Positions 1,327 through 29,630 of a stretch of 56,938 nucleotides of DNA are shown here, one piece after another. The notes beneath the pieces are model-generated. The model was not told the origin of the DNA and made no database searches. It worked only from the letters and a program-made list of their open reading frames with translations. The translations under genes and the position numbers were made by a program. The first letter of the stretch is position 1. Each line of letters begins with the position of its first letter. Origin of the DNA: a virus (taxonomy: Duplodnaviria > Caudoviricetes); IMG/VR virus record IMGVR_UViG_3300033067_000643, positions 1 to 56,938 of that record; one strand, written 5' to 3'.

Positions 1327-4194
1327 TTAAATCCTGAACCCAAAACCAAATCCGAAGCCGCCTTGCTGGCGTGAACTACCGACCACTGGTGCCGTATTCA
1401 TCACTGCTGCCCATGAAGCCACTTGCGTAGGCGTCAGCGACGAGTTGAACACTAGAATGGGGCCGAACCGGAAGTCGCCGCCCTTCGTGCTCTCTGAACG
1501 TGCCCCAATACCTAAAGCCAGTGTCGAGGCAAACGTGCCGTCTGTGCCCGTGATGTTTCCAGACGAGTCGACCTTGGTGATAGTGGCCGGTGTTCCTGTG
1601 GTGTAGATGCTCTTATAGAAATGCACCTTGGAGCCGCGGCCGTTGCCAACCACTCCCAGGAAATACCAGCGGTTCAACGTGATGCCGCCGCTCATCGCTT
1701 CGTTGAAGTTAGCCGAGCCCACGCCAATCGTGGCTTGCACCGTGTTGGTTGTTGTGTTCACGAACATCGAGAAGCCGTTATTGGCTCCCGAGTTGTTGAT
1801 GTTGTCCATCAGGATCGCATAGTCGGAGAATGAATCCGTCACGCGATTGACGCACATCAGCACCGAAAAGACGCCGGTGTTCTGAATGAAGTCGAGGTCG
1901 GTGCTGGCCGCACTCCGCTTGAACAGGTCAACCGCCGCATTCGTAGTGTTGCCCTTGCTCAATCGCACATGCCTACCGAATTCCGTATCCGTGTCCCAGA
2001 AGCTTCCTCGGTTCTGGCTGTTGGTTACGAACAGCCGGTTTAAGCTGCTGCGGTCTTCGTAGGAACTGATGCACGTTCCGTCGATGGGTGGACCCATTGG
2101 GTACGAATTGCCGCCGTACCTGTCCGCGATGCCGTAAGCTCCGACGCCACCCAAGCCAGGGGCGAACAGAGCCATTTTGAGATTGCTAGTCGATGGGATC
2201 GTTGTTGATGCTGTAGGAACGTAACCAATCAGCGTTGACAGGCTCGGCTTGGTCGCTGCAACGGCCAGCATGTTGCCCGTGGTGACGGCCTTATGCGTCA
2301 CCCGCATCATGCGAATACTGGTTCCGGCCGGCGCTGGTGACGTTCCACCCGTCAGCGAACCAACGCGAGCCACCGCACTGCCGGTGACGCCAGCCGTGGC
2401 CGACATGCCGTCAGAGGTGCTTGAGTTGAGCACGCCGTCCACATAGACCCGCAGAGTCACGCCACGATTGAGTACCACCGCAATGTTATGGTAGACCGAC
2501 GAACCCGAGACAGCCGCGCCACTGCTGGCAGTTGCCGTTGTCGTGCCGTCATTCATCGCGGCCGAAACTACGCCAGCATTAATTTGCACCGTACATCCGC
2601 GGCCCGAGTTGGCGCGATTGTCAAACAGGGTCCAGGTCGTTGCAGTCGTGTCAAACTTGACAATCCATTCGTATGTGATTGACTTAAGTCCCGCGTCCCA
2701 CATGCCGCCGTTGTTGCCCGTCTGGGCCGATTGCATTTGCAGGCCAGCGCCAGAACCCGCGAACGTGACGCCTCCCGTCGAGACGCTGCTTGAATCCCAG
2801 CTAACTCCAGCGCCACCCTTGCCCGGTGGGCCGTAGCCTTCCCAACAACCGATTTCCGTGCCGCCCGTGTAGGTCGCAGCCCCGATCACGCCATCGTTCA
2901 GATAGTAGGTTGCAACGCCGGGGTAGGTGCTCTCATCGGTGAACCAGTCCTTCGACCAGCGTGTGACTCGCACGAACTGGGCGCTATTCAGACCATCGGT
3001 GACCGTGGCGTTTTCGTAGTCGTCAACGGCTTCATAGATGCTCAGGAAATTGCCGGTCGACGTTTCTAGAATGCCCGAATAGCCGGCAAAGCCATAGAAC
3101 AATCGCCGGTTTGTGGCAAAGGATGTTCCGTTGTTCGTGCTGCGGTGAATTACGAGACTTGACCGCGTGCCGCTGTTCGATGGAAACACCGCCCAGATAT
3201 CGCCAGTCGCGTCAACGTGCAATGAGCCTTGGCAACCGCTGGTGGGTATGTCATTGGTGCCGTCGCTCATCTTGGTACACGTCGGCCAAGTGCCGGTGAG
3301 TTGGGCCGTGGTGATGATGGCTTGGCCGCGCACCGTGTCGCCGAATGTGCCGGTCCCGATCATCCGCGTCGACAGGAAGTAATCGCCCGTCGCTAGCCTG
3401 GCTATCTGGCACTCATTGGTGCCTTCATTGGCCGCAACGCTTTCCTTGAATCCACCGCCCAGCGAATGCGTGGCCCCGTGGTCGTTCGAGATGACGCAGT
3501 GGTCGAAGCTATCAATACCGTTCCCCGCGTCCGTGCTTTGGTCGAGCGAATAACGATGGTTGCAGGGGATGACGAGCTGGCCGGTTGACGGATTCGTGTA
3601 GAACTTGCCGGGGCCGAACGCATACCAACCCCAAGCCGCATTTGCCAAATCAAAGGTCGTAGCGTCGATGCCTGCCGGGTGCGTGTTGTCAACCTTCTTA
3701 ATGCTAGTGGTGATATCGGTGACGGTGCTTTGGTCCGATGCTGACCACGTTGCGCCGTTGTCATCGGAGTAGATTTGCTTGCAGGTGGTGACCCGCGCCG
3801 TGGCTGAACCATCTGAGTGCGTGAAGTAGATAATCACCCGGCCATTGGCGTTGACGCCGCACACGCCTAAGTTCATCCACTTGCTGCTAGCGCCGCCGTC
3901 GTAGAAGTAATCCGTGCGGTTATAGATCAACGTCGACTGGCCGAAGCTTGCGCCGCCGTTGGTCGATCGCTTCATCCAGATGCCGCGGCAGTTATAGTCC
4001 TCACGCAGCGGCCGCCACTCCGTGAACACCAATATGTCGCCGTTGGATGCGACGATCGGCCCGATGCAAATCCGGTTGACTGCCGAGACGTTGATACCGC
4101 CAGAAAACAGCGAGTTATCCGGGTCCACGTCACCGCGAGTAAACAGCGGGGCCATCTTCTGCGTGCCGAATCCTGGTGCGATGTCTGGCATCAA
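1327..4194 (-). CDS. Sialidase-fold (BNR/Asp-box, GH33-like) protein with two LamG/ConA-like domains; probable virion appendage
   Basis: Asp boxes RSTNGGASF, YSDDNGATW, ISNDHGATH, RSTNNGTSF; NECQ, LSTR, AGYS motifs; LamG-like YHNIAVV..LRVYVDG and WYFLGVV; ends in GFGFGFGFRI. Confidence 0.8.
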   Translation of the reverse strand: MMPDIAPGFGTQKMAPLFTRGDVDPDNSLFSGGINVSAVNRICIGPIVASNGDILVFTEWRPLREDYNCRGIWMKRSTNGGASFGQSTLIYNRTDYFYDGGASSKWMNLGVCGVNANGRVIIYFTHSDGSATARVTTCKQIYSDDNGATWSASDQSTVTDITTSIKKVDNTHPAGIDATTFDLANAAWGWYAFGPGKFYTNPSTGQLVIPCNHRYSLDQSTDAGNGIDSFDHCVISNDHGATHSLGGGFKESVAANEGTNECQIARLATGDYFLSTRMIGTGTFGDTVRGQAIITTAQLTGTWPTCTKMSDGTNDIPTSGCQGSLHVDATGDIWAVFPSNSGTRSSLVIHRSTNNGTSFATNRRLFYGFAGYSGILETSTGNFLSIYEAVDDYENATVTDGLNSAQFVRVTRWSKDWFTDESTYPGVATYYLNDGVIGAATYTGGTEIGCWEGYGPPGKGGAGVSWDSSSVSTGGVTFAGSGAGLQMQSAQTGNNGGMWDAGLKSITYEWIVKFDTTATTWTLFDNRANSGRGCTVQINAGVVSAAMNDGTTTATASSGAAVSGSSVYHNIAVVLNRGVTLRVYVDGVLNSSTSDGMSATAGVTGSAVARVGSLTGGTSPAPAGTSIRMMRVTHKAVTTGNMLAVAATKPSLSTLIGYVPTASTTIPSTSNLKMALFAPGLGGVGAYGIADRYGGNSYPMGPPIDGTCISSYEDRSSLNRLFVTNSQNRGSFWDTDTEFGRHVRLSKGNTTNAAVDLFKRSAASTDLDFIQNTGVFSVLMCVNRVTDSFSDYAILMDNINNSGANNGFSMFVNTTTNTVQATIGVGSANFNEAMSGGITLNRWYFLGVVGNGRGSKVHFYKSIYTTGTPATITKVDSSGNITGTDGTFASTLALGIGARSESTKGGDFRFGPILVFNSSLTPTQVASWAAVMNTAPVVGSSRQQGGFGFGFGFRI

Positions 4195-5657
4195 CTAATT
4201 CCTGTAATTGGTGGTGCCGCGGCGTCGGTCGCAATCGTTCGCTGGCCTAGTTCCGTCGTGCCATCGGTTTTGAAAATCGTCAGCTTGTTGGCGTGGGCCG
4301 TGGTGTTGCTCTCTTGGGCCTGCTGAACTAGCCCATAGAGCGAGCCCATGCTGATGGTGTTGCCGTAGCTCGATAGCTCAACGTTCGCCATCGTGCGCCT
4401 GAGCGTGGTGTCGGCAATCTGGTCGATATGCGCATCGCTGAAAGCCACGCCGGTCGAGATAACTGCCGTGTAGATTGCATCAACGTCGTTCGCCACGGCT
4501 GTCAGGTCGGTGCCCTGCGCCGTGTCATTCGTGAACTTGCCAGCCAGGTTAATTGGGGCCGTCTGTTCGGCAGTGATGAAATAGGTGCCAGTTGTCGGCG
4601 TCGTGACCCATGCCCGATTAACCGTGGCAACTTTGGTCGTGCCGTTGTAGGCCGTGATGGTTCTGAATTCACTGCCCCACTGCACGCCGCAATTGATATA
4701 GGACGAGTCGCTTGACGATGCTCCAGCCGCGTTCAGTGCGATCGTGGTCGAGGTGCTGATGCCGCCCTGAACTGTGTTGGTTTCGATGTAGTTGACGGCT
4801 GCGGTATTGGCAGCATATCCAGCGGTTGGTCCGAAGTACGTGCTCGCATAGGTTGCCAGGCGTGCGTAGGAATCGCCTGTCTGTGCTGTGTGGCCAGTGA
4901 GCGAGCCCACCGAGCCCGTCAGATTTCCAGTGAAGGTGGTGGTGAATGAAGTCGTGACCGTGGTTGCCGCGTTCGTTCCAGCAATGAAGATGCCGCCCGA
5001 TGCACCCGGAACCGCACCGTTGATGCGTAGGTCGTTGCTGGCGTTCGTTCCAGTAACCGCACCCGTGAACGTCGTCGTTCCCGAATGCAGTGTGTTGCCG
5101 GTAATCGTCAGAGCGCCTAGCGTAGTCGTGCCGCTGTTCGACCCTGAAATCAGCACACCGCCAGAACCACCAGCCGCCACGCCATTGACCCGCAAGTCGT
5201 TGCTCGCATTCGTAGCGCTGATGGCACCCGTGAGCGTGGTTGCTCCGGTTACCGTCAATGCTCCTAGCGTGGTCGTGCCAGAATTAGAACCAGAGATTAG
5301 CAAGCCACCCGAAGCCGCAGCGGACGCATTCGGCAAGGCCGTCAAGCCAAGTCGCACCGAGTCTTGAGGGTCGAACGCTACCACCTCAAACAAGATGTCA
5401 ACCGGGTCAGCCGCCGTTCCCGTGGCATGCAAAATCAACGGGCCAAGAGTGCCCGAGTCCGTGGCATTGCCGGCCACCTTGTACCAACCGTTCGCAATCT
5501 CCGTGACGGCACCCGACGGCGAAGCAAAAGAGCCGCCCGCTTTCGAGAGCGTGACCGTTGGCGATAGACCCGTCTTGGCCGTTACGTGGTCGGTGGAATC
5601 GACCATCAGGAACACAAGCGGGTAGGCGGTTGTGGATTGCTTGATCTGGTAACCCAT
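4191..5657 (-). CDS. Thr/Gly-rich virion structural or fibre protein with internal repeats
   Basis: Repeated GG(L/V)LISGSNSGTTTLGALT(V/I)TG..T.TGA....NASNDLR(V/I)NG blocks; coupled to the sialidase gene. Confidence 0.65.
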   Translation of the reverse strand: MGYQIKQSTTAYPLVFLMVDSTDHVTAKTGLSPTVTLSKAGGSFASPSGAVTEIANGWYKVAGNATDSGTLGPLILHATGTAADPVDILFEVVAFDPQDSVRLGLTALPNASAAASGGLLISGSNSGTTTLGALTVTGATTLTGAISATNASNDLRVNGVAAGGSGGVLISGSNSGTTTLGALTITGNTLHSGTTTFTGAVTGTNASNDLRINGAVPGASGGIFIAGTNAATTVTTSFTTTFTGNLTGSVGSLTGHTAQTGDSYARLATYASTYFGPTAGYAANTAAVNYIETNTVQGGISTSTTIALNAAGASSSDSSYINCGVQWGSEFRTITAYNGTTKVATVNRAWVTTPTTGTYFITAEQTAPINLAGKFTNDTAQGTDLTAVANDVDAIYTAVISTGVAFSDAHIDQIADTTLRRTMANVELSSYGNTISMGSLYGLVQQAQESNTTAHANKLTIFKTDGTTELGQRTIATDAAAPPITGIS

Positions 5658-6722
5658 TTAGACGGTCCTCCCGCGTGAATAGCCGCTTCCGCCCGATGCG
5701 CTCATTGAATTCAGCAACAGACCCAGCCCGACTACATCCGTTGTCGAATCTGTCCAACTAATGGTCCCGGCCGTCACGTCAGTCGTGATACTCAACCCAA
5801 AGCCACTGGGTCGCACGCCCGCTGCTCGATATGACGCCGTGTTCCATTGCCAAGAGTTGCCGACATTTGCCGATGAAGCGGAGTCGACAACGAGCCGATA
5901 CGTGCCTGCCGTGAGTGAAATAATCGCCGGCAGAAACGCCCGCACACCTCGCCCACCCTCTGGGATGATCGAGTCCTTGTCGAGCGATACAGTGCTTCCG
6001 CTCACCGTTGCATCAGCCGACGTAAAGATCCTGAACCGCAAATCGCCCGCGGGAGTTCCGTTTGTCGAAAAGATCGTTGAGTATCCTGCCACCCCCAGCG
6101 TGATGCCGGTTGGGACTACGAATTTCTGGGCCACCGCGTTGGTGGTGTAGACCTTTTGAAATGAATTTGCCCCGATTGGCAGAAACCCAAGCGTCTCCTA
6201 TGCGTCGTCCTCGAATACAATCGTCGCAATCGGTATGGCGTTTGCTGTCTCGGTGAACGTCGATCCGTCAGTGGTCTGAAGCGTGATCGCAGGATTCGAG
6301 TAAGACCCGGTTACATAGGCTCGCAATGAGTGCGTTGTGCCTGTCGATGCCGTCACAACTACAATCGCATATTCCGCTCCAGCGGTTAGTCCCGTGGTTG
6401 GAAGCGATGCGAACTGAACATTCTGCCAGCCGGCTACCGGAGTAAATGTCTTGGTGGCGTTCGCGTCGTAGAGCGAGCCGCTCGGCTTGCCGGTGGCGGC
6501 GTTGATCGTCTGAATGCTAACCGTCACCGTGCCGGCGCTGGCAATTGAAGCCCATTGGATGTACACGCTTTTAACGTCGCGCGTGTCTGGAGCCATGAAC
6601 CGAAACGCAACACCGTTATTGATCGTCTGCATCGCAACATTTGTTGGACCGCTAACGTGGACCGAACGCGCATAGTCGTCGAATCCGTATTGCGTCCCAA
6701 AGAGTTGACCGACAGCAGGCAT
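5658..6722 (-). pseudogene. Beta-rich virion protein gene interrupted by one in-frame TAG (readthrough or pseudogene)
   Basis: ORFs 6198..6722 and 5658..6134 are in the same frame, and the 63 nt between them are open (FEDDA*ETLGFLPIGANSFQKVYTTNAVAQKF). Confidence 0.75.
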
Positions 6723-6723
6723 A

Positions 6724-6897
6724 TTAGGCTACACTTAGTTTCGGTTGATGTTTCGCAAACCACAAAACGCACTTCTCGCAAATCGGCCGTTCGTTTCTCT
6801 TGGCTGGTGCCGGGCTGATTCGCTTGCCGTTTCTCCAGACGGTTTCGATTACGTCTCCGCAGGTTGAGCAGTCGCACGCTCGTAATTCACTTGCCAT
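6724..6897 (-). CDS. Small CxxC..CxxC protein (57 aa, below the ORF-track cutoff)
   Basis: Hand translation MASELRACDCSTCGDVIETVWRNGKRISPAPAKRNERPICEKCVLWFAKHQPKLSVA; fills the gap exactly. Confidence 0.6.
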   Translation of the reverse strand: MASELRACDCSTCGDVIETVWRNGKRISPAPAKRNERPICEKCVLWFAKHQPKLSVA

Positions 6898-7239
6898 TTA
6901 CTGGGCTCGCTTGTCCAAGATGGCGCGGTGAATGTCTTCTGTGCGCTTGTCGATTGTGCCGAGAATCGTGTGCGTCTTTTCGTGCCCGCCTTGGCCGATT
7001 TGCACCAAGGCTTTCAGCTCCTCTTGATGATTGCTAACCCCGTCGATGAACTCCGATTGCTTGCCGAGCATTTCCTTGGCGGCTTCGACTAGGCTGTTGA
7101 TGTGCGGCGTGACAAACTTCCACACTGACCGCGTACCCCAAATGCCAAGCAGAACGAACACCACAAGAATCACTGCCGGCCAACCGTACTTGTCCCCAAA
7201 GGTCAGCCATTGCTCGGGGTTCATGGTTGATTCGTTCAT
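6898..7239 (-). CDS. Holin-like membrane protein
   Basis: Single N-terminal TM (YGWPAVILVVFVLLGIWG) followed by a charged helical tail; late-operon position. Confidence 0.55.
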   Translation of the reverse strand: MNESTMNPEQWLTFGDKYGWPAVILVVFVLLGIWGTRSVWKFVTPHINSLVEAAKEMLGKQSEFIDGVSNHQEELKALVQIGQGGHEKTHTILGTIDKRTEDIHRAILDKRAQ

Positions 7240-7270
7240 CGCATGGGCCTCTCTGCTCTCTGTCTTGAAT

Positions 7271-7313
7271 CCCCGGCCGGCTTGCTGCTTGCTTTTGCAG
7301 AGCCGGCTCGGGG
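7271..7313. other. GC-rich intergenic stem-loop
   Basis: CCCCGGCCGGCT...AGCCGGCTCGGGG inverted repeat. Confidence 0.55.
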
Positions 7314-7323
7314 CTGTGAGGTG

Positions 7324-7518
7324 TTACTTTTGTTTCTCTCGTTCAGCGATCATCCAATCGGCGTGTTCGTATGCGTCCTTGACTGCGGCTTCACCCCATG
7401 CGCGGGTTAGGATTCCAGCCAACGCTTGACCAGCGAACCAGTCGCGCAGCGACATGCCACCTCCGTAGTAGTTGTCGGTCGGGAACGCATTGCCACCACT
7501 TGCCTTGATAACTTGCAT
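7324..7518 (-). CDS. Conserved small phage protein
   Basis: AFP....GMSLRDWFAGQAL....AY..AD.MIAER pattern, common in phages. Confidence 0.75.
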   Translation of the reverse strand: MQVIKASGGNAFPTDNYYGGGMSLRDWFAGQALAGILTRAWGEAAVKDAYEHADWMIAEREKQK

Positions 7519-7520
7519 CG

Positions 7521-8054
7521 CTATTTGATTTCCATCCGTGTCGAGTGCTGCAAATGCTGTTTGAAGTTCTCCGCGAATCGGTCCACCACTTTCGGGTCGT
7601 CTTCCAGAACCAACGCTTCCGCGTTCCGTTCTTCCGCGCCGCTCGAATCGTTGAAGCTGCCGAACATCACCCGCTTGCCGTCGAAGATGCGCGTTTTGTT
7701 GTGGGCGATGGCGTGTTGAGCATCGAGGAACACCGATAGCCCCGCCTTGGCACAGTCATCGGCTTGGCTCACCTCTTGCTTGGTTGACTTGGCGTCTAGT
7801 AAGAGCGTGACCTTGACGCCGCGTTGGTGGGCTCGCTGCAAGGCTTCTGAGATTGGCCGCGAGGTAAAGGAGTACATCTGGTAATCAATGCTCTTGCGGG
7901 CCTTGTCGCATTGCTCAACGATGGCAGCCGTGCAGCCTCCGTGCGGGCTGAACCACTGGCCGATAATCTCGGCATGCGTCGGCACCACGTTGGTACAGAC
8001 CATGCCGGCAATCAGGCAGGCGGTCGCGGCTAGTAGTTCAAGCGGCTTGCTCAA
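7521..8054 (-). CDS. Exported phospholipase D-family (Nuc-like) nuclease/phospholipase
   Basis: Single HKD motif HNKTRIFDG...GSFN, RNAE; N-terminal hydrophobic signal; TTG start after GGAGG inferred. Confidence 0.88.
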   Translation of the reverse strand: MSKPLELLAATACLIAGMVCTNVVPTHAEIIGQWFSPHGGCTAAIVEQCDKARKSIDYQMYSFTSRPISEALQRAHQRGVKVTLLLDAKSTKQEVSQADDCAKAGLSVFLDAQHAIAHNKTRIFDGKRVMFGSFNDSSGAEERNAEALVLEDDPKVVDRFAENFKQHLQHSTRMEIK

Positions 8055-8338
8055 ATCAAGACCTCCATGCTTCCGACAATCCACTGCCCCACTCCCTGCA
8101 CGTACAGCCAAAACGTTCCGTCATCGGCAGCAATTGGATCGCGGTACTTGTCGCCTGTTTTGCTCTTTACGGAATCGAAAGCGAGTTCCTTCGATGTGCG
8201 AATAGCGACGACTTTCCTGTCTGCGTCATAATCATCTATCTCAAATGTGACGTACCAAACAATCAACGTCTCGCACTCCATTTCAAAACCCGGCTGGGCC
8301 GGCAAATCCCTCACTGACCCAGCCGGGCGGTACTCCAT
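8051..8338 (-). CDS. Hypothetical protein
   Basis: ORF fills the gap and overlaps the PLD start; start may be 8281. Confidence 0.5.
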   Translation of the reverse strand: MEYRPAGSVRDLPAQPGFEMECETLIVWYVTFEIDDYDADRKVVAIRTSKELAFDSVKSKTGDKYRDPIAADDGTFWLYVQGVGQWIVGSMEVLI

Positions 8339-8347
8339 GCTTCGCTA

Positions 8348-9271
8348 CTACCGGGAACCGGGTGGCTTGATGATGCTTGTGCCACCGGCCGGAAACGCTG
8401 ATTCCTGCGCGCCACCATCGCCGTAGAATCCATCCGCGATGGGCCAGCGAGCCGCCCACACGTTGGCGACGTTGGCCGCAATGCCGCTGATTGGCGTGAG
8501 GTCGTTTGTGCTGGGCCACCACTGTTCGGGCATCCGCTCCTCCACCATTTCGCTGGAGGTGAACAGCGACTCTGGGTTGTAGGTGCCTTCTGCGAACTTC
8601 GTGTTCGGAATTACCAACCCTTCTCCGGCCCCGGCCTTGACGACCTCCTCTTTCGTGTAGCCCAGATACTTCATTGCCATGTCGCCTTGAATGCGGAACA
8701 AGGCCTTCTGTACTAGGCTGGCAATGAAGGTCGTGAAGTTGTCGTCGTAGTCGTTGTCCGAATGCTGCTGCACTTCGCCAAGCAGCTTGAGCATCTGGCC
8801 GCACCACGTCAGGGCATCTTGCTGGCGAATGCGATTGCCGAAGTACGGCACCGGGTAATAAACAAACGCCTTGGGCGTGTTCATTACGTGCTCAGCGTCA
8901 CCGGTTCGATCTTCACCCCAATTGATAGCGCCGTCCTTCATCCGCTTGATGCCGAGTTGCAGCATCTTGTTGAGGTCGAACAGCCATTCGCCGTTGAATG
9001 GGCGCGAGAACTTCACGTCCGGCCGGTGCATTAGGTTGAATAGCTCAAAGCCAAGGAACTGGTGAATTCGCCAGATGGATTCGTTCGAGGTGGTGGGCTT
9101 GCCGCCGTCATTCGGGATGGCATAGCCAGCATCGCCCCACACGCCGTTTCGCCACCAGAGAATCTCCGAGCTGGCGAACTTCGGGCCGGTTGTTTCGTCA
9201 AACGCGGCCGGCTGAAACATCGGTACTTTTGGATCGAGCTTGACGGTAGCTTGGTCGGTCGGGTCAGGCAT
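8348..9271 (-). CDS. Hypothetical protein (307 aa) coupled to the thioredoxin-trypsin gene
   Basis: Long globular-looking ORF; its start overlaps the upstream stop. Confidence 0.8.
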   Translation of the reverse strand: MPDPTDQATVKLDPKVPMFQPAAFDETTGPKFASSEILWWRNGVWGDAGYAIPNDGGKPTTSNESIWRIHQFLGFELFNLMHRPDVKFSRPFNGEWLFDLNKMLQLGIKRMKDGAINWGEDRTGDAEHVMNTPKAFVYYPVPYFGNRIRQQDALTWCGQMLKLLGEVQQHSDNDYDDNFTTFIASLVQKALFRIQGDMAMKYLGYTKEEVVKAGAGEGLVIPNTKFAEGTYNPESLFTSSEMVEERMPEQWWPSTNDLTPISGIAANVANVWAARWPIADGFYGDGGAQESAFPAGGTSIIKPPGSR

Positions 9272-10949
9272 GGCTCAAATCTCCAGATAGTTGGACCTTA
9301 TAGGTGTCTTCAAAGAACTTCGCCGCGTGGCGAAGTTGAGGATTGGCATCGGTTGCGGCTTGGATAGCGCGCCTAAAGTCCGGCAGCTTGTCGCCAATCG
9401 CCGGTTGTCTGTACAGAACGGGTTGTTGAGCCTTGGCTAGCTCGGCAAGTAGTCGCTCGTTTTCAGCCCGCAGAGAATCCGCCAATGCTGTGTTCTGCTT
9501 GAGCGGTTCGGCTGGGCGCGCTAGTGGCGTTTCGGTGAATGGCGGGATATTCCAGGTGATGGGAACAGATGGAGCATCCGTCTTTCCGCCAGACTTTCGA
9601 TTCGCCCACCAGCCCTTGAGTTTCTTGCTGATGAAGTTCACGGCCAGCGCACCACCCACACCAGCAACCACGCCCGCGGGTCCAGAGCCAATGCCAACCG
9701 CAATTAGCAGCCCTTCAATCCATGAAGTTGCGGCCTTAGTAGCCACGCCTTCAACCTTGCCTTCGATACGATCGACGATGCCGCCATTGCTCGGGCTTGT
9801 GGAATTCGTTTGTGCTGGCGGATTGCCACCCGATTGCGCCACGCCAGCCGGTGGGCCAGCGGGAATCGGTATGGTGATGTCCGGTGCTCCCGGCGTAACT
9901 GGAACGAGTGGGCCAGCACTTTCATCCGGTAGCGGCTTGACTGGCGTGGTTCCGACTGGCGGAACGTCGGGCCTGACTTCAATCGTTCCAGGCTTAGTGC
10001 CGTTCTGAGGCTGCGGCTGGCGATGTCGGGCGCGGATGCGTTCCAGCAAATCCCTAATCGGAGTGCAAGAGCAAGCCGTGACCATGCGGGCGGGATTCAT
10101 TGTGCCGTCGTCGTTCTTCTCTGGCGTCGTCGATTGCACGACGCCCACCAGTTCGCCGCGTTCGTTCAGGACTGGTCCGCCTGAATCGCCGTGCCGTGCC
10201 GGACCATGAATTGAAAAGAAGCCTCGCACGTTGTTGGCGGTGACGAATTCAGCTAACGCGCCGCGATTTACTAGGTAGCGCCCCTGCTCGCCATAGCCAG
10301 ACGACAGCAGCATTTCGCCGATTCGCGGGTCGCTTTGCCCGATGGGAATTGGCTGGACATTTGGGGCCGCGATTTCTAGGACTGCCAAGTCGTGCGGTCG
10401 GTCTAGCTCGATCATCTTCGCGGCAAGCGTTTCGCCGTTTGGAAAGGCCACGGACAATTCGCCAGCGCCCGCCTCTTGCGTGAATGTGTGCGCCGCAGTG
10501 ACGACAAGTGCCGTCGCTCCGTTGCGTTCAACAAGCGTGCCGGAACCCATGTAGTAGGCACCAGCCACATGGTTTCGCACACGACAGACGGCAGGCGGAA
10601 CACGGTCGGTTCGCTGTTGCAGCTTCGGGCCTTGGTTCAATAGCGCAAGCAACTGCTGCTCGCTCGCCATGCCAGTGATTCGGCCGATGAGCGTGTTGCC
10701 TTCGATGACGAGAAACGTCGGATAGGCCGTGACTTCGCTTTTGTATGGCTCCCATCCCGTTGGCATGCCGTTGCTGCAATCCACCACGCGAACGTCGTAG
10801 CCAGCGTTGGCAATATTCTGGACAATGGGCTTCATCTGCTGGCAAGGTCCGCACCAGCTAGCCGTGAAATCGAACAGCACCGGCGCACCGTCAGCACTGC
10901 CGCCAAGGGCGACTAAGATTGCAGCGACAGTTAGCCAGCGATAGAGCAT
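9264..10949 (-). CDS. Exported thioredoxin + trypsin-like serine protease fusion with a C-terminal hydrophobic segment
   Basis: Signal peptide MLYRWLTVAAILVALGGSADG; WCGPC; triad TAAH / HDLA / GDSGGP; Pro-rich linker; Gly-rich hydrophobic helix. Confidence 0.9.
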   Translation of the reverse strand: MLYRWLTVAAILVALGGSADGAPVLFDFTASWCGPCQQMKPIVQNIANAGYDVRVVDCSNGMPTGWEPYKSEVTAYPTFLVIEGNTLIGRITGMASEQQLLALLNQGPKLQQRTDRVPPAVCRVRNHVAGAYYMGSGTLVERNGATALVVTAAHTFTQEAGAGELSVAFPNGETLAAKMIELDRPHDLAVLEIAAPNVQPIPIGQSDPRIGEMLLSSGYGEQGRYLVNRGALAEFVTANNVRGFFSIHGPARHGDSGGPVLNERGELVGVVQSTTPEKNDDGTMNPARMVTACSCTPIRDLLERIRARHRQPQPQNGTKPGTIEVRPDVPPVGTTPVKPLPDESAGPLVPVTPGAPDITIPIPAGPPAGVAQSGGNPPAQTNSTSPSNGGIVDRIEGKVEGVATKAATSWIEGLLIAVGIGSGPAGVVAGVGGALAVNFISKKLKGWWANRKSGGKTDAPSVPITWNIPPFTETPLARPAEPLKQNTALADSLRAENERLLAELAKAQQPVLYRQPAIGDKLPDFRRAIQAATDANPQLRHAAKFFEDTYKVQLSGDLSHA

Positions 10950-10956
10950 GGTAAAT

Positions 10957-11475
10957 TTAGCGGCAACGTCGGTGAAAAATGCGGAGCCTTGGACGGCAGC
11001 GCTGAGCGGGTTTGCATTTGGCCGGTGGCGCAATGGCTGCGGTCGGCTGCGGCTTGGGGGCTTCGGGGGCTGGGGTGGGAACTGTGTCTGTCTCGCGCTT
11101 TTGGGCCTTATCGCAACGGCATGTAGCACCTAGAAATACTCGCGGCCAAGGATTCCACTGCCACCCGCTCTCCCATTGGTCGCACGCACACGATTCGCCG
11201 CAAAGGCATTGGCCGAGCGGACCCGGCTTGATTTCAACGAGTGGCTTCGGTGCCTTGCATTGACACGATTTGCAATCGCATGGCTTCTCTTTTTCGCAGC
11301 ACGCCGCGGGCTCCGCAGGCTTCGCCGTTCCATTTGGGCAACACGCAACAGGCGTCCGAACGTGCTCGGGAATCATGCTCAGCGACACCACCCAAGTAAG
11401 CAGCATCAAGCCGAAAACGGCGGCAAAGGCAAAGGCCACAGTCCAAGGCATGGCGGTTTCGTTTTTCTTGCTCAC
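10957..11475 (-). CDS. Membrane-anchored cysteine-rich protein
   Basis: TM segment, then CC, CDCKSCQC, CLCGESCAC, CRC clusters; GTGA overlap with the upstream stop. Confidence 0.7.
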   Translation of the reverse strand: MSKKNETAMPWTVAFAFAAVFGLMLLTWVVSLSMIPEHVRTPVACCPNGTAKPAEPAACCEKEKPCDCKSCQCKAPKPLVEIKPGPLGQCLCGESCACDQWESGWQWNPWPRVFLGATCRCDKAQKRETDTVPTPAPEAPKPQPTAAIAPPAKCKPAQRCRPRLRIFHRRCR

Positions 11476-12083
11476 GGTATCACCAGCCCTTCCCATAAAA
11501 CCGCGTGATAGCCACGCTGTAAGTCGTTCGGTTCGATGAACCTGTCGCCACGCCGCGGGCAGGGGTCGAAGCCTTCACCCTTGCCAGCCAATCGCTCAGC
11601 CCAGCCCACCGTCTGCGAGCAATGCTTCAGGTCTTCCCACTTGCTGGGCGTCGTGTCTGTCGTGTCGATCTTTCCGAACCCGAACCAACCGGCCACAATC
11701 CGAATCAGGTTGCACCGAAACCACAGAGCCAGAACTACCGACCAGACTCCATACTGATGGCCTGCTTGCCGGCAAACGATGTCAGCCGACTTGGCCGCGC
11801 ACTCTTGCGAGCACTTCGGCCGGTATACGTCGATGCGTCCTGGGTACTTTTCAATCTGGCTCGACGCGGTAATGATTCGCCCCCCGAAGAACTCCCGACA
11901 CTCCGCAATCATCAAAACGGTTTGCTTGCCCCTCGCATCCCGCAGCCAAACGAACTTGCCAACGTGTGTGTAGGGGTCGACCTGCGTGGCTCCAATCAGT
12001 CCGCCATTCCTGAACATGGCGTTGTCGCCCGTCCGAATCAGGCGGCGAACTTCGTGGTATTGGGTGGTGTTGGGCTCGTCCAC
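11472..12083 (-). CDS. Permuted papain-like NlpC/P60 enzyme (YiiX/YebB-like)
   Basis: IRTGD..F, YTHVG (His) preceding G..Y and CSQ (Cys), terminal P.DL. Confidence 0.8.
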   Translation of the reverse strand: MDEPNTTQYHEVRRLIRTGDNAMFRNGGLIGATQVDPYTHVGKFVWLRDARGKQTVLMIAECREFFGGRIITASSQIEKYPGRIDVYRPKCSQECAAKSADIVCRQAGHQYGVWSVVLALWFRCNLIRIVAGWFGFGKIDTTDTTPSKWEDLKHCSQTVGWAERLAGKGEGFDPCPRRGDRFIEPNDLQRGYHAVLWEGLVIP

Positions 12084-12278
12084 TTACGATCCCTCGGAAA
12101 TAACCCGATCCGCTTCGTCTCTAAAGCTGTCTCGATTCACCATCCGCTCAAGTATCAGCAGCGCCGCACGGCAGCTATTCGCCGGCGTCTGAGCGTCCAG
12201 CGCAAACATCATGTTCACAGCCACTCTGGCCACCGCCTGCACTTCGTGGCCGTATGTTCTCTCGTTCCCGTCGACCAA
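12084..12278 (-). CDS. Hypothetical protein
   Basis: Abuts the NlpC/P60 start. Confidence 0.45.
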   Translation of the reverse strand: MVDGNERTYGHEVQAVARVAVNMMFALDAQTPANSCRAALLILERMVNRDSFRDEADRVISEGS

Positions 12279-12312
12279 CGATCACCCCCTTTCGACTGCT
12301 AGAGGGCCGCCG

Positions 12313-12558
12313 CTAAACCACGTTTATCCCGCTCTGCACAAGCATGTCGATGTCGGCCTTGTGTCGCGCCGCTTGCTCGTTCATTTGCTGAGTGAGCTTG
12401 CGAACTTGGTCCTGAAGCTTTGAGATGTCGCTATTGTAGAAACCGCGGAACTTAGCTTGCCGCTCGAACTCTTCTTTCATCGAAAGGTTAATAATCACCC
12501 CAATGCCGATGACGAGCTCGACGCTAACAAGTGCAATAAATAAGGCGGCTTCGGCCAT
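12313..12558 (-). CDS. N-terminal TM plus coiled-coil protein
   Basis: Hydrophobic N-terminus and heptad-like C-terminus. Confidence 0.6.
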   Translation of the reverse strand: MAEAALFIALVSVELVIGIGVIINLSMKEEFERQAKFRGFYNSDISKLQDQVRKLTQQMNEQAARHKADIDMLVQSGINVV

Positions 12559-12560
12559 CG

Positions 12561-13574
12561 CTACTTCGCTCCCTGATAAACCCGGTAAGTGCCGTCTGGA
12601 TTGGAACCATCTGCGGGAAGGAAGCTCGCCTTAGAGCGGCGCGCCTCCACGTCGTAGATTGCTTTGGCCGTGCCTGGAACAACCGTGAACGTGCAGCCAT
12701 CCACCAAGAATTGGCAGGGCTGGCCGTCGGAGTAGTACTGGTCCGTGATGGCCGCAATGCGGGGGCAGCCAAACTTGCCGGTCGGTTCGTATTCCGTCGT
12801 GAGTCCGGCCGATGAGAAGAAGCTATTGCGGATGGTCGCTTTTCCGCCTCGCATCAACACGCCAGCTAGGACGCCGCCACGGTTCACATCAGAACCGCTC
12901 GATTCTCCAAACGACTTGGAGCCATCAGCCGTGCCGAGGAACTTGCAGTTCTCAGCTTCGATAGCGACTCGATAGCTTCCGCTGCTGTCGAGGCCAGTAA
13001 GCCCCATGCGGGCATATTGCAAGGTGCAATTGCGAAAGCGGACGGTACGGTGACCAGCACTCCAGTTGTAGAACAGCCAGTCGTTGCCCTGCGAACCGTC
13101 TAGCGTGCAATCCTGGAACGTCACATCGGCGTCGGATTGCGGCTCACCAAACCCGATGAGCCCTCCATCTTCATTCCCGTCATAGCAGCGTCCAATGAAC
13201 GTGAAGCCCTTGAACGAATACTTGCCTTTGACCAGCACAAAGCCCGGCGTCCCTTTCGGCTTTGTCATGGCCGTGGCGTCGATCTTGCAGCGGGTAGTCC
13301 AGACGGCTCCCTCGCTAATCCAGCACGCAGCCGGCAGCGAAAGCACGTAGTCTTTGCCGAAGTCCGCTTCGCCGCGGGCGATGAGCGTGTCTGTTTCGAT
13401 AACCTTCGTGCCGATGCCGCCCAGCGTAGAGCGAATGACGGCAGCCCGGTCTGCGGAGTTGGTCGACTTCGGGGAATCGAGCAGCGTTTTGCCATCTCGC
13501 ACCCATGAGATATCTTGAGCCGCCGCCGAAAGCGTCAGCAGCAAGAATGCCAGGGCTGAGAGCAAAGGTCGCAT
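12561..13574 (-). CDS. Exported right-handed beta-helix (pectin-lyase-like) protein
   Basis: Signal peptide MRPLLSALAFLLLTLSAAAQ; repeated TFQDCTL, RFRNCTL, ENCKF, IRNSFF, VDGCTF coils. Confidence 0.7.
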   Translation of the reverse strand: MRPLLSALAFLLLTLSAAAQDISWVRDGKTLLDSPKSTNSADRAAVIRSTLGGIGTKVIETDTLIARGEADFGKDYVLSLPAACWISEGAVWTTRCKIDATAMTKPKGTPGFVLVKGKYSFKGFTFIGRCYDGNEDGGLIGFGEPQSDADVTFQDCTLDGSQGNDWLFYNWSAGHRTVRFRNCTLQYARMGLTGLDSSGSYRVAIEAENCKFLGTADGSKSFGESSGSDVNRGGVLAGVLMRGGKATIRNSFFSSAGLTTEYEPTGKFGCPRIAAITDQYYSDGQPCQFLVDGCTFTVVPGTAKAIYDVEARRSKASFLPADGSNPDGTYRVYQGAK

Positions 13575-13594
13575 TCGGGGTTTCCCTATGGGCA

Positions 13595-13647
13595 AATAAA
13601 AAACGGGCGCTGCTAGTGACATTGGCTTGTCACCGGCAGCGCCCGTT
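13595..13647 (-). terminator. Intrinsic terminator separating the early and late blocks
   Basis: AACGGGCGCTGC..TGACA/TGTCA..GCAGCGCCCGTT long stem followed by TTTTATTT on the minus strand. Confidence 0.8.
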
Positions 13648-13764
13648 CACGTCGCCGCATTGGCTTGCGGCAAGGGTACTGTTTCAGATTATCGGGGCAG
13701 AATTAGCGTTTCATGGCATCACCTCGCGTTTTACGCGGAGAGCAAATTGAAATCGGTAAGACGA

Positions 13765-16512: not shown

Positions 16513-18192
16513 CTAATCCTGCTCCCCCGTTCCCTTGGCTGTTACCGGGGGCTGCGATTCGGGGCCATACGCCATCACCCTTAGCCGCCTCACGTTAGCG
16601 ACCAAGCCCGCAATCGTGTAGGCGTTTCGTGATCCCTCCGGCCAGCCATAAGCCAGAGCGGCGATTGTATCTACCCATGCGGCGTACTGGCCCCCGCCTA
16701 CCTCTGCTGCTGGGGGTGCGGATGGTAGGACGAACTCGCGTATGAATTTCTTCATGCCCTGGTTCGCATCAGAGATAAACCGTTTATCAAACTCCGCTTC
16801 CCAGTTGCTGGCTGCTGGCGGGGCGGCGGGCATTGGAACCCAGCCGGCAGTTAAAGCCGCTTCATCAAGTGCGTTGCGAATGTCAGCGTCGCGCGACTTG
16901 AACCTTGCGGCTCGCTCCTCGCTGGCTGCTGGCGGTGCGGGGGGCTGTTGAAACGCAACTCGAATGATCTCCGCGATGGCCTCCTCGAACGGCTCTCTCG
17001 TCGCAAGGTCGACGCTGTATTCAGTCGGGATAATTGGCTTGCCATGCAAGCTCTGGCAACTCAGCCATGAAACGATCCGTTCTGCCGCCCTTGCTTCTTT
17101 CGTCTGGCACAATCGCTGCTCCTCGCTGGCTGCTGGGGCCTTGGCTGTTACCGGGGGCTGCGATGCCTTTTGCCGTGTCAGCATTCCGACGAGCATTCCA
17201 ACCGCCAACTCCAAGTGCTGGATGTCGTAAGGGCCGTTCAGGTGTGTGCGGATTTCGCCGCCGGTGTTCGTGTGCAACCATTCGCACACGTCGTGGACAT
17301 TCGCTTTTAGGTCCGCAAACGCCAAGGCGTCTGCAAGCATTTGTTCGTCTCGCTGCTCCCCGCCTACCTCTGCTGCTGGGGGGGCGGCGGGAATGTGCTG
17401 CCTAATCTCTTCGTAGATTGCCCGGCGAACACTGATTGCGATTTGGGTGTTCGGCAGCCATCGCTTAATCGCCGCACAAAACTTATCCCACGCTGCGTCA
17501 TAATCTGGATTCATGCCATGCGGCTCCTCGCTGGCTGCTGGGGCCTTGGGGGCTGACTGTTCGCGTGTTGACTTGTACGCCATAGCAATTGTCTGCCGCT
17601 CGGCGGCTTGCTCAAGGCCGCTGATGTAATCGGCGACGATATCGACCTTTTCGCCGGCAGACCTTTTTGTCCAGTGCTCGTCGGAAATTCCATCAGGCCG
17701 GATACGCTCAAGCGTTCCGTGGAATATCGCGCGGGTTATTTTCTCGTCGTTTGCCGCGTCCCCTTCCCCGCTCTCGGCCTTGGGGGGATGCCAGCGTTTT
17801 AGAATCTTGCGCGGCAGGCCGATCCATTTGCTGCCCGATTTACTGTGGTCGGAGTAGCGAACATTCCCTAGCGCATCGAGGAAGGTGTCGCCTGCCCTAA
17901 CCTCCCGGTCACAATCAATCACGTGCACCACCGCTCCCTCGGGCAGCACGCCGGCAGATAGGGCGGCTCCGGCTTTCATTTGCCAGTGGTCGCGGTCTCG
18001 CTCCATCGTGGATAGATTGTCGGACAGCCGCTCTGCTCTCTGGTTCGCTTCGGCTAGCTGGGCCTTCAGTGATTCGACCTCCAATTTATAAACTTCCCGT
18101 TCGCAATCGTTGATGATGAATAAGTGTTTAGCGTTTTCTAATTGCCGAATAGCTGAGTTGAATCCTTGCTCAGCGGTTGCGGTCGTGCTCAT
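16513..18192 (-). CDS. Mosaic multi-module protein with repeated Pro/Ala linkers
   Basis: Coiled-coil N-terminus; unique segments separated by PAASEE, PAAEVGG and SQPPVTAK repeats. Confidence 0.8.
   Translation of the reverse strand: MSTTATAEQGFNSAIRQLENAKHLFIINDCEREVYKLEVESLKAQLAEANQRAERLSDNLSTMERDRDHWQMKAGAALSAGVLPEGAVVHVIDCDREVRAGDTFLDALGNVRYSDHSKSGSKWIGLPRKILKRWHPPKAESGEGDAANDEKITRAIFHGTLERIRPDGISDEHWTKRSAGEKVDIVADYISGLEQAAERQTIAMAYKSTREQSAPKAPAASEEPHGMNPDYDAAWDKFCAAIKRWLPNTQIAISVRRAIYEEIRQHIPAAPPAAEVGGEQRDEQMLADALAFADLKANVHDVCEWLHTNTGGEIRTHLNGPYDIQHLELAVGMLVGMLTRQKASQPPVTAKAPAASEEQRLCQTKEARAAERIVSWLSCQSLHGKPIIPTEYSVDLATREPFEEAIAEIIRVAFQQPPAPPAASEERAARFKSRDADIRNALDEAALTAGWVPMPAAPPAASNWEAEFDKRFISDANQGMKKFIREFVLPSAPPAAEVGGGQYAAWVDTIAALAYGWPEGSRNAYTIAGLVANVRRLRVMAYGPESQPPVTAKGTGEQD
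16533..17549. repeat. Interspersed exact 25-27 bp direct repeats
   Basis: 16533-16558=17139-17164; 16692-16716=17358-17382; 17118-17144=17523-17549; shorter copies at 16914 and 16807. Confidence 0.9.
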
Positions 18193-27240: not shown

Positions 27241-27307
27241 AAAACCGGCTGGCGTGCAAGCTGTTGTCGCCCCAGCTACTACTCGGGGGGAATGCACGCT
27301 AGCCGGT
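27241..27307 (-). terminator. Long stem-loop or terminator at the end of terC
   Basis: CCGGCT(A/G)GCGTGCA arms at 27245-27258 and 27293-27306, followed by TTTT on the minus strand. Confidence 0.55.
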
Positions 27308-28261: not shown

Positions 28262-28282
28262 CGCAGAATCCTTTCGCTAAAA

Positions 28283-28711
28283 CTAGGCTGCGTAGTTGGC
28301 ACTCGACAAACCGAGGACTCCACACAGTTCGACCAATACTTTCTTTTCCGAATCATCAAAAGTGCCGTCGGCATTGGCGATGATTAAGGCCACCTTTAAT
28401 GCCGTGTCGGCTTGTGACTCATTGCCCTTCAGCTTGCGCACCACCTGAAGGAGGTCGAGGCGAGAGAACTCGTCTTCGGCCTTCACGCAGTATTCCTCGA
28501 ACGTGTCGCGCAGATCGGTCGGCTGGAATACGCTAAGCATTTGGTTGCCGACAATCAGCTTGGCTACCTTGGACCGTTCGTCCTTGCTAACCGTGCCGTC
28601 GGCCGCAGCCATGAGCGCACAAACTGCCATCGTTGCGTTTTTGAAAGTCGCGTTGTTGAATTGTGCGACCATCGTTGTGGCCTTAGCCTGAAAATCTTTA
28701 AGCCATTGCAT
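28283..28711 (-). CDS. terB: TerB-family protein
   Basis: A.CALMAAADG.VS.DE; IANADG.FD..EK. Confidence 0.93.
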   Translation of the reverse strand: MQWLKDFQAKATTMVAQFNNATFKNATMAVCALMAAADGTVSKDERSKVAKLIVGNQMLSVFQPTDLRDTFEEYCVKAEDEFSRLDLLQVVRKLKGNESQADTALKVALIIANADGTFDDSEKKVLVELCGVLGLSSANYAA

Positions 28712-28797
28712 GCCCTGAATTCCTTTCGTGGGATGGGGCGTTTAGGAGCAGGGGTGCTGGGTGCCAAACGGTGACACCCAGCCGAGCCCCGGCACTA

Positions 28798-29403: not shown

Positions 29404-29486
29404 GATGGGCCTCCTTGTGTTGCAGTCCGGTTGATGGGCCAGAGTGCTGAACCAATAAATCCCGCCATCACGGGGTTGGAAGTTTT

Positions 29487-29630
29487 CTAGATCGCGCGTC
29501 GCAGCAGCCAACCGTTCACGATGCCAAGCCCCAGCAATAACGAGTCGCCGAATGGAACCGGCAGGAAATAAACGGCCGCAGTTGCCGCAATCACGCATAG
29601 CCATGTCGAACCTAATAGATACTTGCTCAC
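29487..29630 (-). CDS. Small membrane protein (47 aa)
   Basis: Hand translation MSKYLLGSTWLCVIAATAAVYFLPVPFGDSLLLGLGIVNGWLLRRAI; GTGA overlap. Confidence 0.55.
   Translation of the reverse strand: MSKYLLGSTWLCVIAATAAVYFLPVPFGDSLLLGLGIVNGWLLRRAI

Follow-up and report, generated by a model that had tools for sequence, protein, structure and literature searches.

The window analysed here, a 56,938-nucleotide stretch of a Caudoviricetes record (IMGVR_UViG_3300033067_000643), carries between positions 6898 and 13574 a block of 12-13 co-directional genes in the ORF list. The genes are tightly packed, most neighbours having a gap or an overlap of 0-25 nt, and all features of the operon described below lie on the minus strand. 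Directly upstream of the first gene is an intrinsic terminator-like hairpin (13+7 bp) followed by a U-run (13591-13648, minus strand). The hairpin itself (13648-13601) has a folding energy of -53.3 kcal/mol and a z-score of -6.08, and none of 200 shuffled sequences was equally stable. The 3' end of the block has no terminator. Here the stop codon of the last gene, encoding a 113-aa protein, abuts the ATG of a 57-aa CxxC...CxxC ORF (6724-6897), which indicates that the operon continues past the block and into fibre-like genes. An earlier note had described a terminator-bounded late operon, which holds for the 5' end but not for the 3' end. The gene order runs from the strong terminator through the block, which heads the late operon, to the fibre-like genes, an HNH gene and TerS/TerL across the genome ends.

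The first gene (12561-13574, start at MRP...) encodes a 337-aa protein with a plain Sec-type signal peptide (hydrophobic residues 17-35 of the long ORF). It had been put forward as an exported beta-helix protein. The export signal stands, but the possible right-handed beta-helix is weakly supported, with matches to Beta_helix (PF13229) at E 0.04-0.056 (13.5 bits at E 0.056) under the cut-off of 25.9. Matches at E<=1 occur in two of five members of the family, which comprises three homologues and one in locus L009; the 337-aa protein gave no PDB sequence match. An 81-aa protein follows (12313-12558), with a single N-terminal transmembrane segment, as was noted before for a TM-coiled-coil protein, and no family in Pfam, PHROGs or NCBIfam. 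Next is a 64-aa ORF of uncertain reality (12084-12278; GC3 0.68; no family) that abuts the start of the following gene.

That gene (11472-12083) encodes a 203-aa protein which its family profile identifies as a divergent Peptidase_C92 or YiiX-type permuted NlpC/P60 enzyme. The window protein alone gives no match to PF05708 (Peptidase_C92) at E<=10, but 35 of 90 sampled family members do match it (best 2.4e-8), the homologue in L007 scores 30.3 bits against a cut-off of 27, and the family profile matches the PDB entries 3kw0 (1.3e-10) and 2if6 (1.6e-5). His40, Tyr111 and Cys155 are invariant across the 90 sequences; the His precedes the Cys, which is the permuted order, and both align with those of 3kw0 and 2if6. 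The profile and this catalytic order support the earlier call of a permuted NlpC/P60 enzyme. An AlphaFold2 model built from only 8 sequences has a pLDDT of 39, and a papain-like fold is not readable from it. The protein has one internal hydrophobic stretch (113-131) and no signal peptide, which counts against a role in lysis. By its His-before-Cys order, conserved Tyr and profile matches the enzyme resembles YiiX (2if6), B. cereus PPNE (3kw0) and the T6SS effector Tox-Act1/TseH; it differs from them in being very divergent and encoded in a phage late operon. PMC3142127 and PMC12994826 report lipid-directed activity for permuted NlpC/P60 enzymes of this group, and by this analogy in sequence the C92 enzyme, rather than the PLD-family protein described below, is the lipid-directed candidate of the block. 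Its family (710 cluster representatives) would form a phage-specific branch of these enzymes. Downstream, a single-TM ORF (10957-11496, likely start 11451) has 17 Cys in 179 aa, in agreement with the Cys-rich membrane protein noted earlier, and was not found in the related loci.

The gene at 9264-10949 encodes a 561-aa protein in which Pfam matches, motifs and hydrophobicity delimit a signal or first transmembrane segment, a thioredoxin domain, a trypsin-type serine protease domain, a Pro-rich linker, a second transmembrane segment and a cytoplasmic tail. The thioredoxin domain (PF00085, 46.8 bits, cut-off 23.5) has a single CGPC at ORF residues 93-96, and the protease domain (Trypsin_2, PF13365, 81.9 bits, cut-off 27.6) has GDSGG at ORF residue 314, with the His and Asp seen by eye. 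The hydrophobic segments span ORF residues 68-86 and 471-489; the first fits the exported thioredoxin-trypsin fusion of the earlier note, to which the second adds a further membrane segment. The tail bears a conserved motif of ~50 aa, and the combination of membrane anchoring and cytoplasmic tail suggests control from inside the cell rather than simple secretion. The next ORF (8348-9271) shares 8 nt with the end of the fusion gene, stop codon included, confirming the coupling proposed for it. It encodes a conserved helical cytoplasmic protein of 307 aa with no known fold or family; its structure model, predicted with confidence, matched no known fold, lysozyme-like or other. This protein and the tail motif are two uncharacterised conserved elements, the 307-aa protein being the best-conserved unknown of the module.

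A 95-aa ORF (8051-8338) has a stop that overlaps a TTG start of the following gene (7521-8111, true start probably near 8056) and is a possible partner of its product, a PLD-family candidate exported nuclease of Nuc/NucT type identified with Pfam and NCBIfam. This protein scores 85.2 bits to PLDc_2 (cut-off 27) and has one HxKxxxxD motif (HNKTRIFD at 137) and an N-terminal hydrophobic segment. The single HKD, the ~150-aa catalytic core and the N-terminal export signal are shared with the Nuc/NucT endonucleases, its best NCBIfam matches (6.5e-15); its 55.1 bits to the NucT equivalog (NF010492) compare with a curated cut-off of 297, and it is a predicted nuclease. At the same place 5 of the 11 related loci hold SNase or Endonuclease_NS. 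Given this resemblance and these swaps, cleavage of lipids by the PLD protein, as supposed earlier, is unlikely, although its export and its PLDc_2 domain are retained. Lysis does not require an exported nuclease, a point against that function for the block. The last two genes encode a 64-aa protein of phrog_2201 (7324-7518; PHROGs E 1e-11; no assigned function) and the 113-aa protein (6898-7239), which has one transmembrane segment (22-40) and a long polar C-terminal part, and is holin- or i-spanin-like in architecture only. It had been called holin-like, and the single segment agrees with this, but neither it nor the 81-aa protein matches a holin family in Pfam, PHROGs or NCBIfam. Inspection by eye found no lipobox ORF in or after the 113-aa protein, and no o-spanin-like lipoprotein. 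These small membrane proteins are not conserved in sequence among relatives, which also counts against lysis.

The gene neighbourhood, whose conservation was among the checks suggested earlier, is kept in related phages and prophages. The module, with the 307-aa family throughout, occurs at 11 loci and consists of four slots. The first (A) holds a lipid or ester hydrolase, which is of the C92 family in L004, L005, L007, L008, L009 and weakly in L003, Lipase_3 at the same place in L002, and in another case a weak alpha/beta-hydrolase. The second (B) holds the exported membrane-anchored protease and its tail, with Trypsin_2 in 7 of 11 loci, Peptidase_MA_2 (below cut-off) in L003 and L005, and thioredoxin in L002, L004, L005 and L006. 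The tail motif is found in 10 of the 11 loci, fused to the protease in eight and as a separate ORF in L010 and L011, and the 307-aa gene (C) is always encoded right after it. The last slot (D) holds signal-peptide-bearing nucleases of three unrelated families. Lysis cassettes typically show such non-orthologous swaps in fixed slots. The tail and the 307-aa protein, which are conserved best, have no assigned lysis role, and this counts against one for the module. In L003, L004/G002, L007 and L010 the module closely precedes terminase (Pfam-confirmed), and in G001 it stands between head and tail genes, inside the structural operon, so that its late-operon site is next to packaging genes or, in relatives, between head and tail genes. 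Genome matches of the 307-aa family fall in Planctomycetota MAGs at five of seven loci, the others being one Zixibacteria MAG and one 1.7-kb contig binned as Actinomycetes. This supports the planctomycete link suggested before, and the host of the window phage is probably a planctomycete. The two loci outside that phylum, and the rarity of the family within it (present in 5 of 401 genomes sampled), are further observations that count against lysis.

We found no lysozyme, amidase, M15, M23, transglycosylase or canonical NlpC/P60 in 78 window ORFs searched with Pfam and PHROGs (a set apart from the TerS ORF, 56422-56913, and small plus-strand ORFs), and no muralytic family among 34 window ORFs with NCBIfam. 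Six-frame searches with PF00959, PF01464, PF01510, PF00182, PF13539, PF00877 and PF01551 returned nothing in any of five records, and HMM searches of the near-complete relatives G001 (100% complete, with terminal repeats) and G002 (90% complete), 111 ORFs in all, found no muralytic family either. Nor did the domain searches of the window match Peptidase_C1, the papain-type protease family. The claim that no classical endolysin is recognisable is borne out at the HMM level; about 35 window ORFs have no family, which weighs against a lysis role as well. Planctomycetes have lysozyme-sensitive peptidoglycan sacculi (PMC4432640), so their peptidoglycan must still be cut or bypassed. Domain and family searches identified no peptidoglycan-cutting activity in the block or window, and this too counts against lysis.

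We hypothesise, at somewhat less than an even chance, that a temperate HK97-like cos siphovirus of Planctomycetota uses this block as its lysis module to open the host envelope. The block would work with no recognisable peptidoglycan hydrolase, as one variant of the mosaic gene set conserved among the related loci. The catalytic motifs are intact in the thioredoxin, protease, PLD and C92 proteins. Late transcription would read through the terminator at 13591-13648, and the enzymes would be exported by Sec and accumulate, while the tail and the 307-aa protein would restrain the protease, or set its timing, from within the cytoplasm. The small membrane proteins would then act as the trigger, and the thioredoxin-protease would attack envelope proteins, possibly unleashing host autolysins that would handle the peptidoglycan. 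For the C92 enzyme the targets may be acyl bonds in membrane lipids or lipoproteins; the nuclease may thin the released DNA. The earlier scheme of disulfide reduction, proteolysis and lipid cleavage keeps its thioredoxin and protease but not its PLD lipase, and was incomplete in omitting the best-conserved elements, namely the tail of the protease protein and the 307-aa protein. A broader proposal, which we regard as doubtful, is that Planctomycetota phages lyse their hosts without a peptidoglycan hydrolase of their own: a Sec-exported thioredoxin-protease, tethered in the inner membrane and controlled from the cytoplasm via its tail and the new-fold 307-aa protein, would dismantle the protein-rich envelope and set off host autolysins, with the C92 enzyme helping and the nuclease clearing DNA. 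If true, this would add a new class to the lysis systems of tailed phages, together with a new regulatory protein family. To our knowledge, every tailed phage studied so far in walled bacteria relies on a peptidoglycan hydrolase to open the cell. Planctomycetota have an unusual envelope and their phages have hardly been studied; a conserved module at a lysis-cassette site in phages with no recognised endolysin is a concrete candidate for another route there.

It is also possible, though unlikely, that the block is an accessory cassette: its protease, lipid hydrolase and nuclease would be set free when the cell lyses or afterwards, and would digest envelope debris, matrix and DNA, which would free virions and help them spread. 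The true endolysin would then be an unrecognised fold, for which the 337-aa protein, a 559-aa ORF (16513-18192) or a tail protein are candidates. Prophage DNases are known beside the lysis modules of streptococcal phages, and the occurrence of three families of exported nuclease in one slot is easier to reconcile with debris digestion than with opening of the wall. The many ORFs without family and the peptidoglycan of the host phylum (PMC4432640) also agree with this explanation. Against it are the muralytic searches, negative in the window and in both near-complete relatives, the unmatched model of the 307-aa protein, and the protease anchoring and tail. If a hidden endolysin does prove responsible for lysis, the exported set of protease, lipase and nuclease would still deserve notice as an accessory system.

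We consider it improbable that the module serves lysogenic conversion or envelope remodelling, with prophage-made proteins altering the host surface for superinfection exclusion or secreted hydrolases scavenging nutrients. The integrase (32801-34030; Pfam, PHROGs) makes the phage temperate, planctomycetes are known for polymer degradation and could be fed by exported hydrolases, and the 307-aa family occurs in MAG prophages in up to three copies per genome; yet the block stands behind a strong terminator, contiguous and co-directional with fibre-like and packaging genes and adjoining neither integrase nor repressor, and the G001 module is inside the structural operon. Virion-borne or tail-associated enzymes that breach the envelope at infection are very improbable: the G001 module does sit between head and tail genes and the window block precedes fibre-like genes, but no virion-protein family was matched, and with Sec-type signals and a two-TM topology the proteins would leave the cytoplasmic site of assembly. 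We give almost no weight to a phage-carried defence or toxin module of protease and PLD nuclease, since the PADLOC domain-level matches to DrmC (2.7e-10) and RT-Protease_XI (5.4e-12) are accompanied by no other DISARM or RT gene and no other defence match among 13 block proteins, both proteins carry export signals, and the DrmC identity of the PLD protein was rejected at 39.4 bits in NCBIfam against an equivalog cut-off of 133.

As a lysis module, the block can be compared with the classical cassettes, lambda S-R-Rz/Rz1 behind tR', that of HK97, and P2 Y-K-lysABC between head and tail genes. It shares with them expression behind a terminator, predicted to be late, a site either ahead of the packaging genes or between those for head and tail, the presence of exported enzymes and of small membrane proteins, and slot-wise mosaic replacement. 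It differs in having no muralytic enzyme and no recognised spanin pair, and in its core, a membrane-anchored protease, with or without thioredoxin, whose cytoplasmic tail is paired with a 307-aa protein of unmatched fold. Mycobacteriophages, whose hosts also have an unusual envelope, add the lipid/ester hydrolase LysB to their cassette, much as slot A holds C92, Lipase_3 or a weak alpha/beta-hydrolase, but they keep the peptidoglycan hydrolase LysA, for which no counterpart was seen in the window phage. The protease domain is closest in NCBIfam to MarP (Rv3671c; 3.5e-16), a membrane-anchored periplasmic S1 serine protease that activates the NlpC/P60 hydrolase RipA. At 59.2 bits, well short of the cut-off of NF033740 (250), the window protein is not a member of that family, and its thioredoxin fusion and C-terminal TM and tail are absent from MarP.

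The block runs on the minus strand from 13574 to 6898 and holds 12-13 closely packed ORFs. It opens with a 337-aa protein (start MRP at 13574) carrying a plain Sec signal peptide, followed by a single-TM 81-aa protein, a 64-aa ORF and a 203-aa protein (11472-12083) of the C92/YiiX-type permuted NlpC/P60 family. A single-TM ORF with 17 Cys comes next, and then a 561-aa fusion of thioredoxin and trypsin-type protease (9264-10949, start MLYRW at 10949), whose stop is overlapped by 8 nt by the start of the 307-aa gene (8348-9271). The stop of a 95-aa ORF (8051-8338) overlaps a TTG start of the PLD gene (7521-8111), which encodes one HKD motif behind an N-terminal hydrophobic segment; the 64-aa phrog_2201 protein and a single-TM 113-aa protein complete the set. 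All of these genes lie on the minus strand. Directly upstream of the first gene is a hairpin of 13+7 bp followed by UUUUUUAUUU (-53.3 kcal/mol, z -6.08, 0/200 shuffles as stable). This long-looped hairpin was detected by folding and missed by a simple promoter/terminator scan, which returned 11 terminator-like sites against 12.2 expected and none at the ends of the block. The downstream end has no terminator: the ATG of a 57-aa CxxC ORF directly abuts the stop codon of the 113-aa gene, and the 174-aa gene comes after it. Because the genes run on in this way, the block appears to open a longer late operon. The 84-nt gap before the 113-aa gene (7240-7323, minus strand) contains a GC-rich inverted repeat that no U-run follows, possibly an internal regulatory hairpin.

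Pfam and PHROGs scans of the 78 ORFs gave a siphovirus gene map for the 56,938 bases of this single IMG/VR virus record, with nearly all genes on the minus strand. TerL (54776-56506) is followed by the portal, an S78 prohead protease, an HK97-type capsid (47928-49280), connectors, two adjoining tail-tube paralogues (42705-43133 and 43147-43560; both phrog_158, 77% identity across 300 nt), chaperones, the tape measure (39925-41610) and five distal-tail ORFs without assignment. The prohead protease and capsid genes are separated (50137-51564, minus) by a Metallophos exonuclease gene and a truncated ORF resembling nucleoside 2-deoxyribosyltransferase. The integrase (32801-34030) is on the plus strand, and between it and the block are the early genes for a C5 methylase, VWA, TerB, TerC, exonuclease/RecT, a replication initiator and RuvC. 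Among these, TerC (7.8e-47), TerB (6.2e-21) and the VWA protein cluster at 27299-29646 (minus), in what resembles, by sequence, a phage-borne tellurite-resistance-like membrane stress set. A 559-aa ORF (16513-18192, minus) with several internal direct repeats matched no family in Pfam, PHROGs or NCBIfam and no PDB sequence. Beyond the block are ORFs of 174, 158, 488 and 955 aa (BNR_2), a 'tail fibre' PHROG and a fibre-tail adaptor (Gp77). An HNH endonuclease (135-482) occupies one genome end and a terminase small subunit-like ORF (56422-56913) the other, which we take to be an HK97-like cos arrangement of HNH and TerS-TerL. This match suggests that the record is essentially a whole genome, against the 73% completeness estimated by CheckV.

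A muralytic enzyme was sought in several ways. None of the 78 ORFs matched a lysozyme, transglycosylase, amidase, M15, M23, CHAP or canonical NlpC/P60 family (Pfam E<=0.01, PHROGs; NCBIfam was also run on 34 of them). Six-frame searches, which are independent of ORF calls and were positive on built-in control genomes, found PF00959 in none of five records (the window and four relatives), and the same was true for each of PF01464, PF01510, PF00182, PF13539, PF00877 and PF01551. Two relatives are near-whole, G001 (100% complete with terminal repeats) and G002 (90%), and no muralytic family appeared at E<=0.001 among their 111 ORFs of 100 aa or more, a count that leaves aside the final 552 bases of G001 and any gene truncated by a 20-kb fetch border. 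The earlier note's claim that the window has no recognisable endolysin thus holds at the HMM level. About 35 ORFs have no family, and PDB sequence searches with the 203-, 307-, 353-, 559-, 495- and 488-aa proteins gave nothing below E 0.04; an unrecognised muralytic fold among the family-less ORFs is possible. On that basis the block could instead be an accessory exo-enzyme set beside an endolysin of unrecognised kind encoded elsewhere, which we consider rather unlikely, if the strongest of the alternatives.

Searches of IMG/VR with the single 203-aa or 307-aa protein gave no usable locus, and among 50,697 phage records tblastn found no match to either protein, only partial single-domain matches to the protease fusion (4 records), and blastn of the block a single 47-nt chance-like match. 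Alignment-based scans worked, giving 6 viral and 7 genome loci. Eleven loci were used; L012 (whose sequence pattern repeats that of L003), L014 (1.7 kb long) and L021-L028 (with short flanking sequence) did not enter the neighbourhood counts. Gene-neighbourhood conservation, a check proposed in the earlier note, was borne out: tblastn, blastp, Pfam and our own profiles revealed a module of fixed order in the 11 loci, and 5 of the 7 genome loci are in Pirellulales (3) or Planctomycetaceae (2) MAGs, the others being one Zixibacteria and one Actinomycetes-binned 1.7-kb contig. The two closest genome loci (69% and 68% identity) belong to the Pirellulales/Planctomycetaceae set. The 307-aa family occurs in 5 of 401 sampled Planctomycetota genomes, and two MAGs of this phylum contain it three times.

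Slot A of the module holds a hydrolase of ~200-300 aa. It is of the C92 family in L004, L005 and L007, whose proteins are members of the alignment behind our profile, and in L008 (2.5e-28) and L009 (7.5e-27), with a weak match in L003 (4.6e-4). L002 has a Lipase_3 here, and L010 and L011 share a common protein (34% identity) with a weak, below cut-off match to Abhydrolase_6 (E 0.0037). Slot B is a 322-812-aa protein with a signal or TM segment, with Trypsin_2 in 7/11 loci and below cut-off Peptidase_MA_2 matches in L003 and L005; thioredoxin is present in L002, L004 and L005, and L006 encodes it in an ORF of its own. Slot C is the 307-aa family and slot D, in 5/11 loci, a nuclease. Small single-TM ORFs accompany the module in relatives. 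No counterpart of the Cys-rich ORF or of the 81-, 113- or 64-aa protein could be detected there; for the 337-aa protein one was found, in L009 (30% identity). Upstream of the module L008 and L009 carry a UvrD helicase similar in size to the window's 559-aa ORF. Terminase lies within about 6 kb downstream of the module in L003, L004 (G002), L007 and L010. The G001 module (Lipase_3, trypsin plus thioredoxin, 307-aa family, SNase) has capsid/connector genes on one side and the tail terminator on the other. In the window the same hot spot holds a SAM methyltransferase whose N-terminus is zinc-ribbon-like (44366-45229, minus), inserted among head-tail connector genes. G001 also carries, at 2970-10577, a thymidine hypermodification set with 5-hmdU DNA kinase, amino acid:DNA transferase, a thymidylate-synthase-like protein, MazG and a family A polymerase.

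The fusion protein of the window contains a thioredoxin domain (46.8 bits, with CGPC) and Trypsin_2 (81.9 bits, with GDSGG). Of its two hydrophobic segments one is N-terminal, and the second, Gly/Ala-rich at ORF residues 471-489, is followed by basic residues; by the positive-inside rule both domains would be periplasmic and the last ~130 residues cytoplasmic. A motif of ~50 residues at this cytoplasmic end is kept in 10/11 loci whatever the exported domains, and in L010 and L011 it is encoded on its own, by a small ORF immediately preceding the 307-aa gene. Together the tail and the 307-aa protein make up the invariant core of the module.

The 307-aa protein has 60 homologues (43-100% identity), no predicted TM segment or signal peptide, and no match in Pfam, PHROGs, NCBIfam, PADLOC or PDB sequences. 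An AlphaFold2 model from 44 sequences, an alignment that left out the initial wrong-frame L013 ORF, was mostly helical (pLDDT 79.5, pTM 0.77). Foldseek gave no match at E<=0.001 (best E 1.3 in PDB, 0.2 in BFVD), VIA-align against 48,161 chains reached a best Z of 5.5 with generic helical bundles, and the ESM Atlas, whose own model was poor (pLDDT 0.31), returned rows below TM 0.4. As modelled, the protein is not lysozyme-like. Its predicted fold is so far without a match, which does not prove a new fold.

As a single query the 203-aa protein matched nothing in Pfam, PHROGs, NCBIfam, PDB or PF05708, and its AlphaFold2 model from 8 sequences was unusable (pLDDT 39). Its ESM Atlas neighbours are viral clusters with PF05708 in 12-15% of their members, and a profile from 8 close homologues recovered 710 cluster representatives at E<=0.001; the permuted NlpC/P60 label given from sequence alone was right at the family level. 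The PLD had been read as a lipid-cleaving enzyme, and this now looks unlikely: NCBIfam matched it best to NucT nucleases (6.5e-15) and DrmC, every score falling well short of its equivalog cut-off, and the 307-aa gene is followed in 5/11 loci by a gene for SNase (L002) or Endonuclease_NS (L003, L004, L005, L013), with N-terminal hydrophobic signals. That one slot holds three unrelated nuclease folds argues that the PLD is an exported nuclease and not a phospholipase. The product of the 95-aa ORF before it could act in the cytoplasm as an inhibitor that spares phage and host DNA until the nuclease is exported. Small ORFs precede the nuclease genes in L003 and L005 too.

Our best reading, held tentatively, is that the block is a lysis module. 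The location of the genes favours it: the block follows a terminator at the start of a late operon, and in relatives the module precedes terminase or is flanked by head and tail genes. Export signals, preserved catalytic motifs, non-orthologous replacement slot by slot and the lack of a recognisable endolysin in the window and two near-complete relatives favour it too. The exported enzymes would accumulate in the periplasm, with control exerted through the tail and the 307-aa protein; disulfide reduction would be followed by attack on envelope proteins, with lipid or lipoprotein deacylation, DNA clearance and possibly release of host autolysins. An older description of planctomycete envelopes is as cystine-rich protein envelopes. 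Because planctomycete sacculi are lysozyme-sensitive, according to Jeske et al. (PMC4432640), peptidoglycan must be dealt with, and this is the main gap in the lysis-module reading. Lysogenic conversion is a distinctly doubtful explanation for the block and a role as virion entry proteins a very improbable one. That the block proteins form a defence system is scarcely credible and was rejected after a defence-family (PADLOC) search.

The literature searched gave no account of a module like this one, nor of how planctomycete phages lyse their hosts, and a 2025 review (PMC12673574) uses the word 'phage' once and describes neither. Passages of two phage papers mention C92 enzymes only as an annotation or in tail-associated wall degradation (PMC7289586, PMC9703825). 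In the wider superfamily, canonical NlpC/P60 members cut peptidoglycan, whereas the permuted ones possess a hydrophobic pocket and target lipids, Tox-Act1 being a phospholipase (PMC3142127, PMC12994826). By present knowledge the 203-aa enzyme would for this reason be no hidden endolysin, but a candidate lipid- or lipoprotein-directed enzyme.
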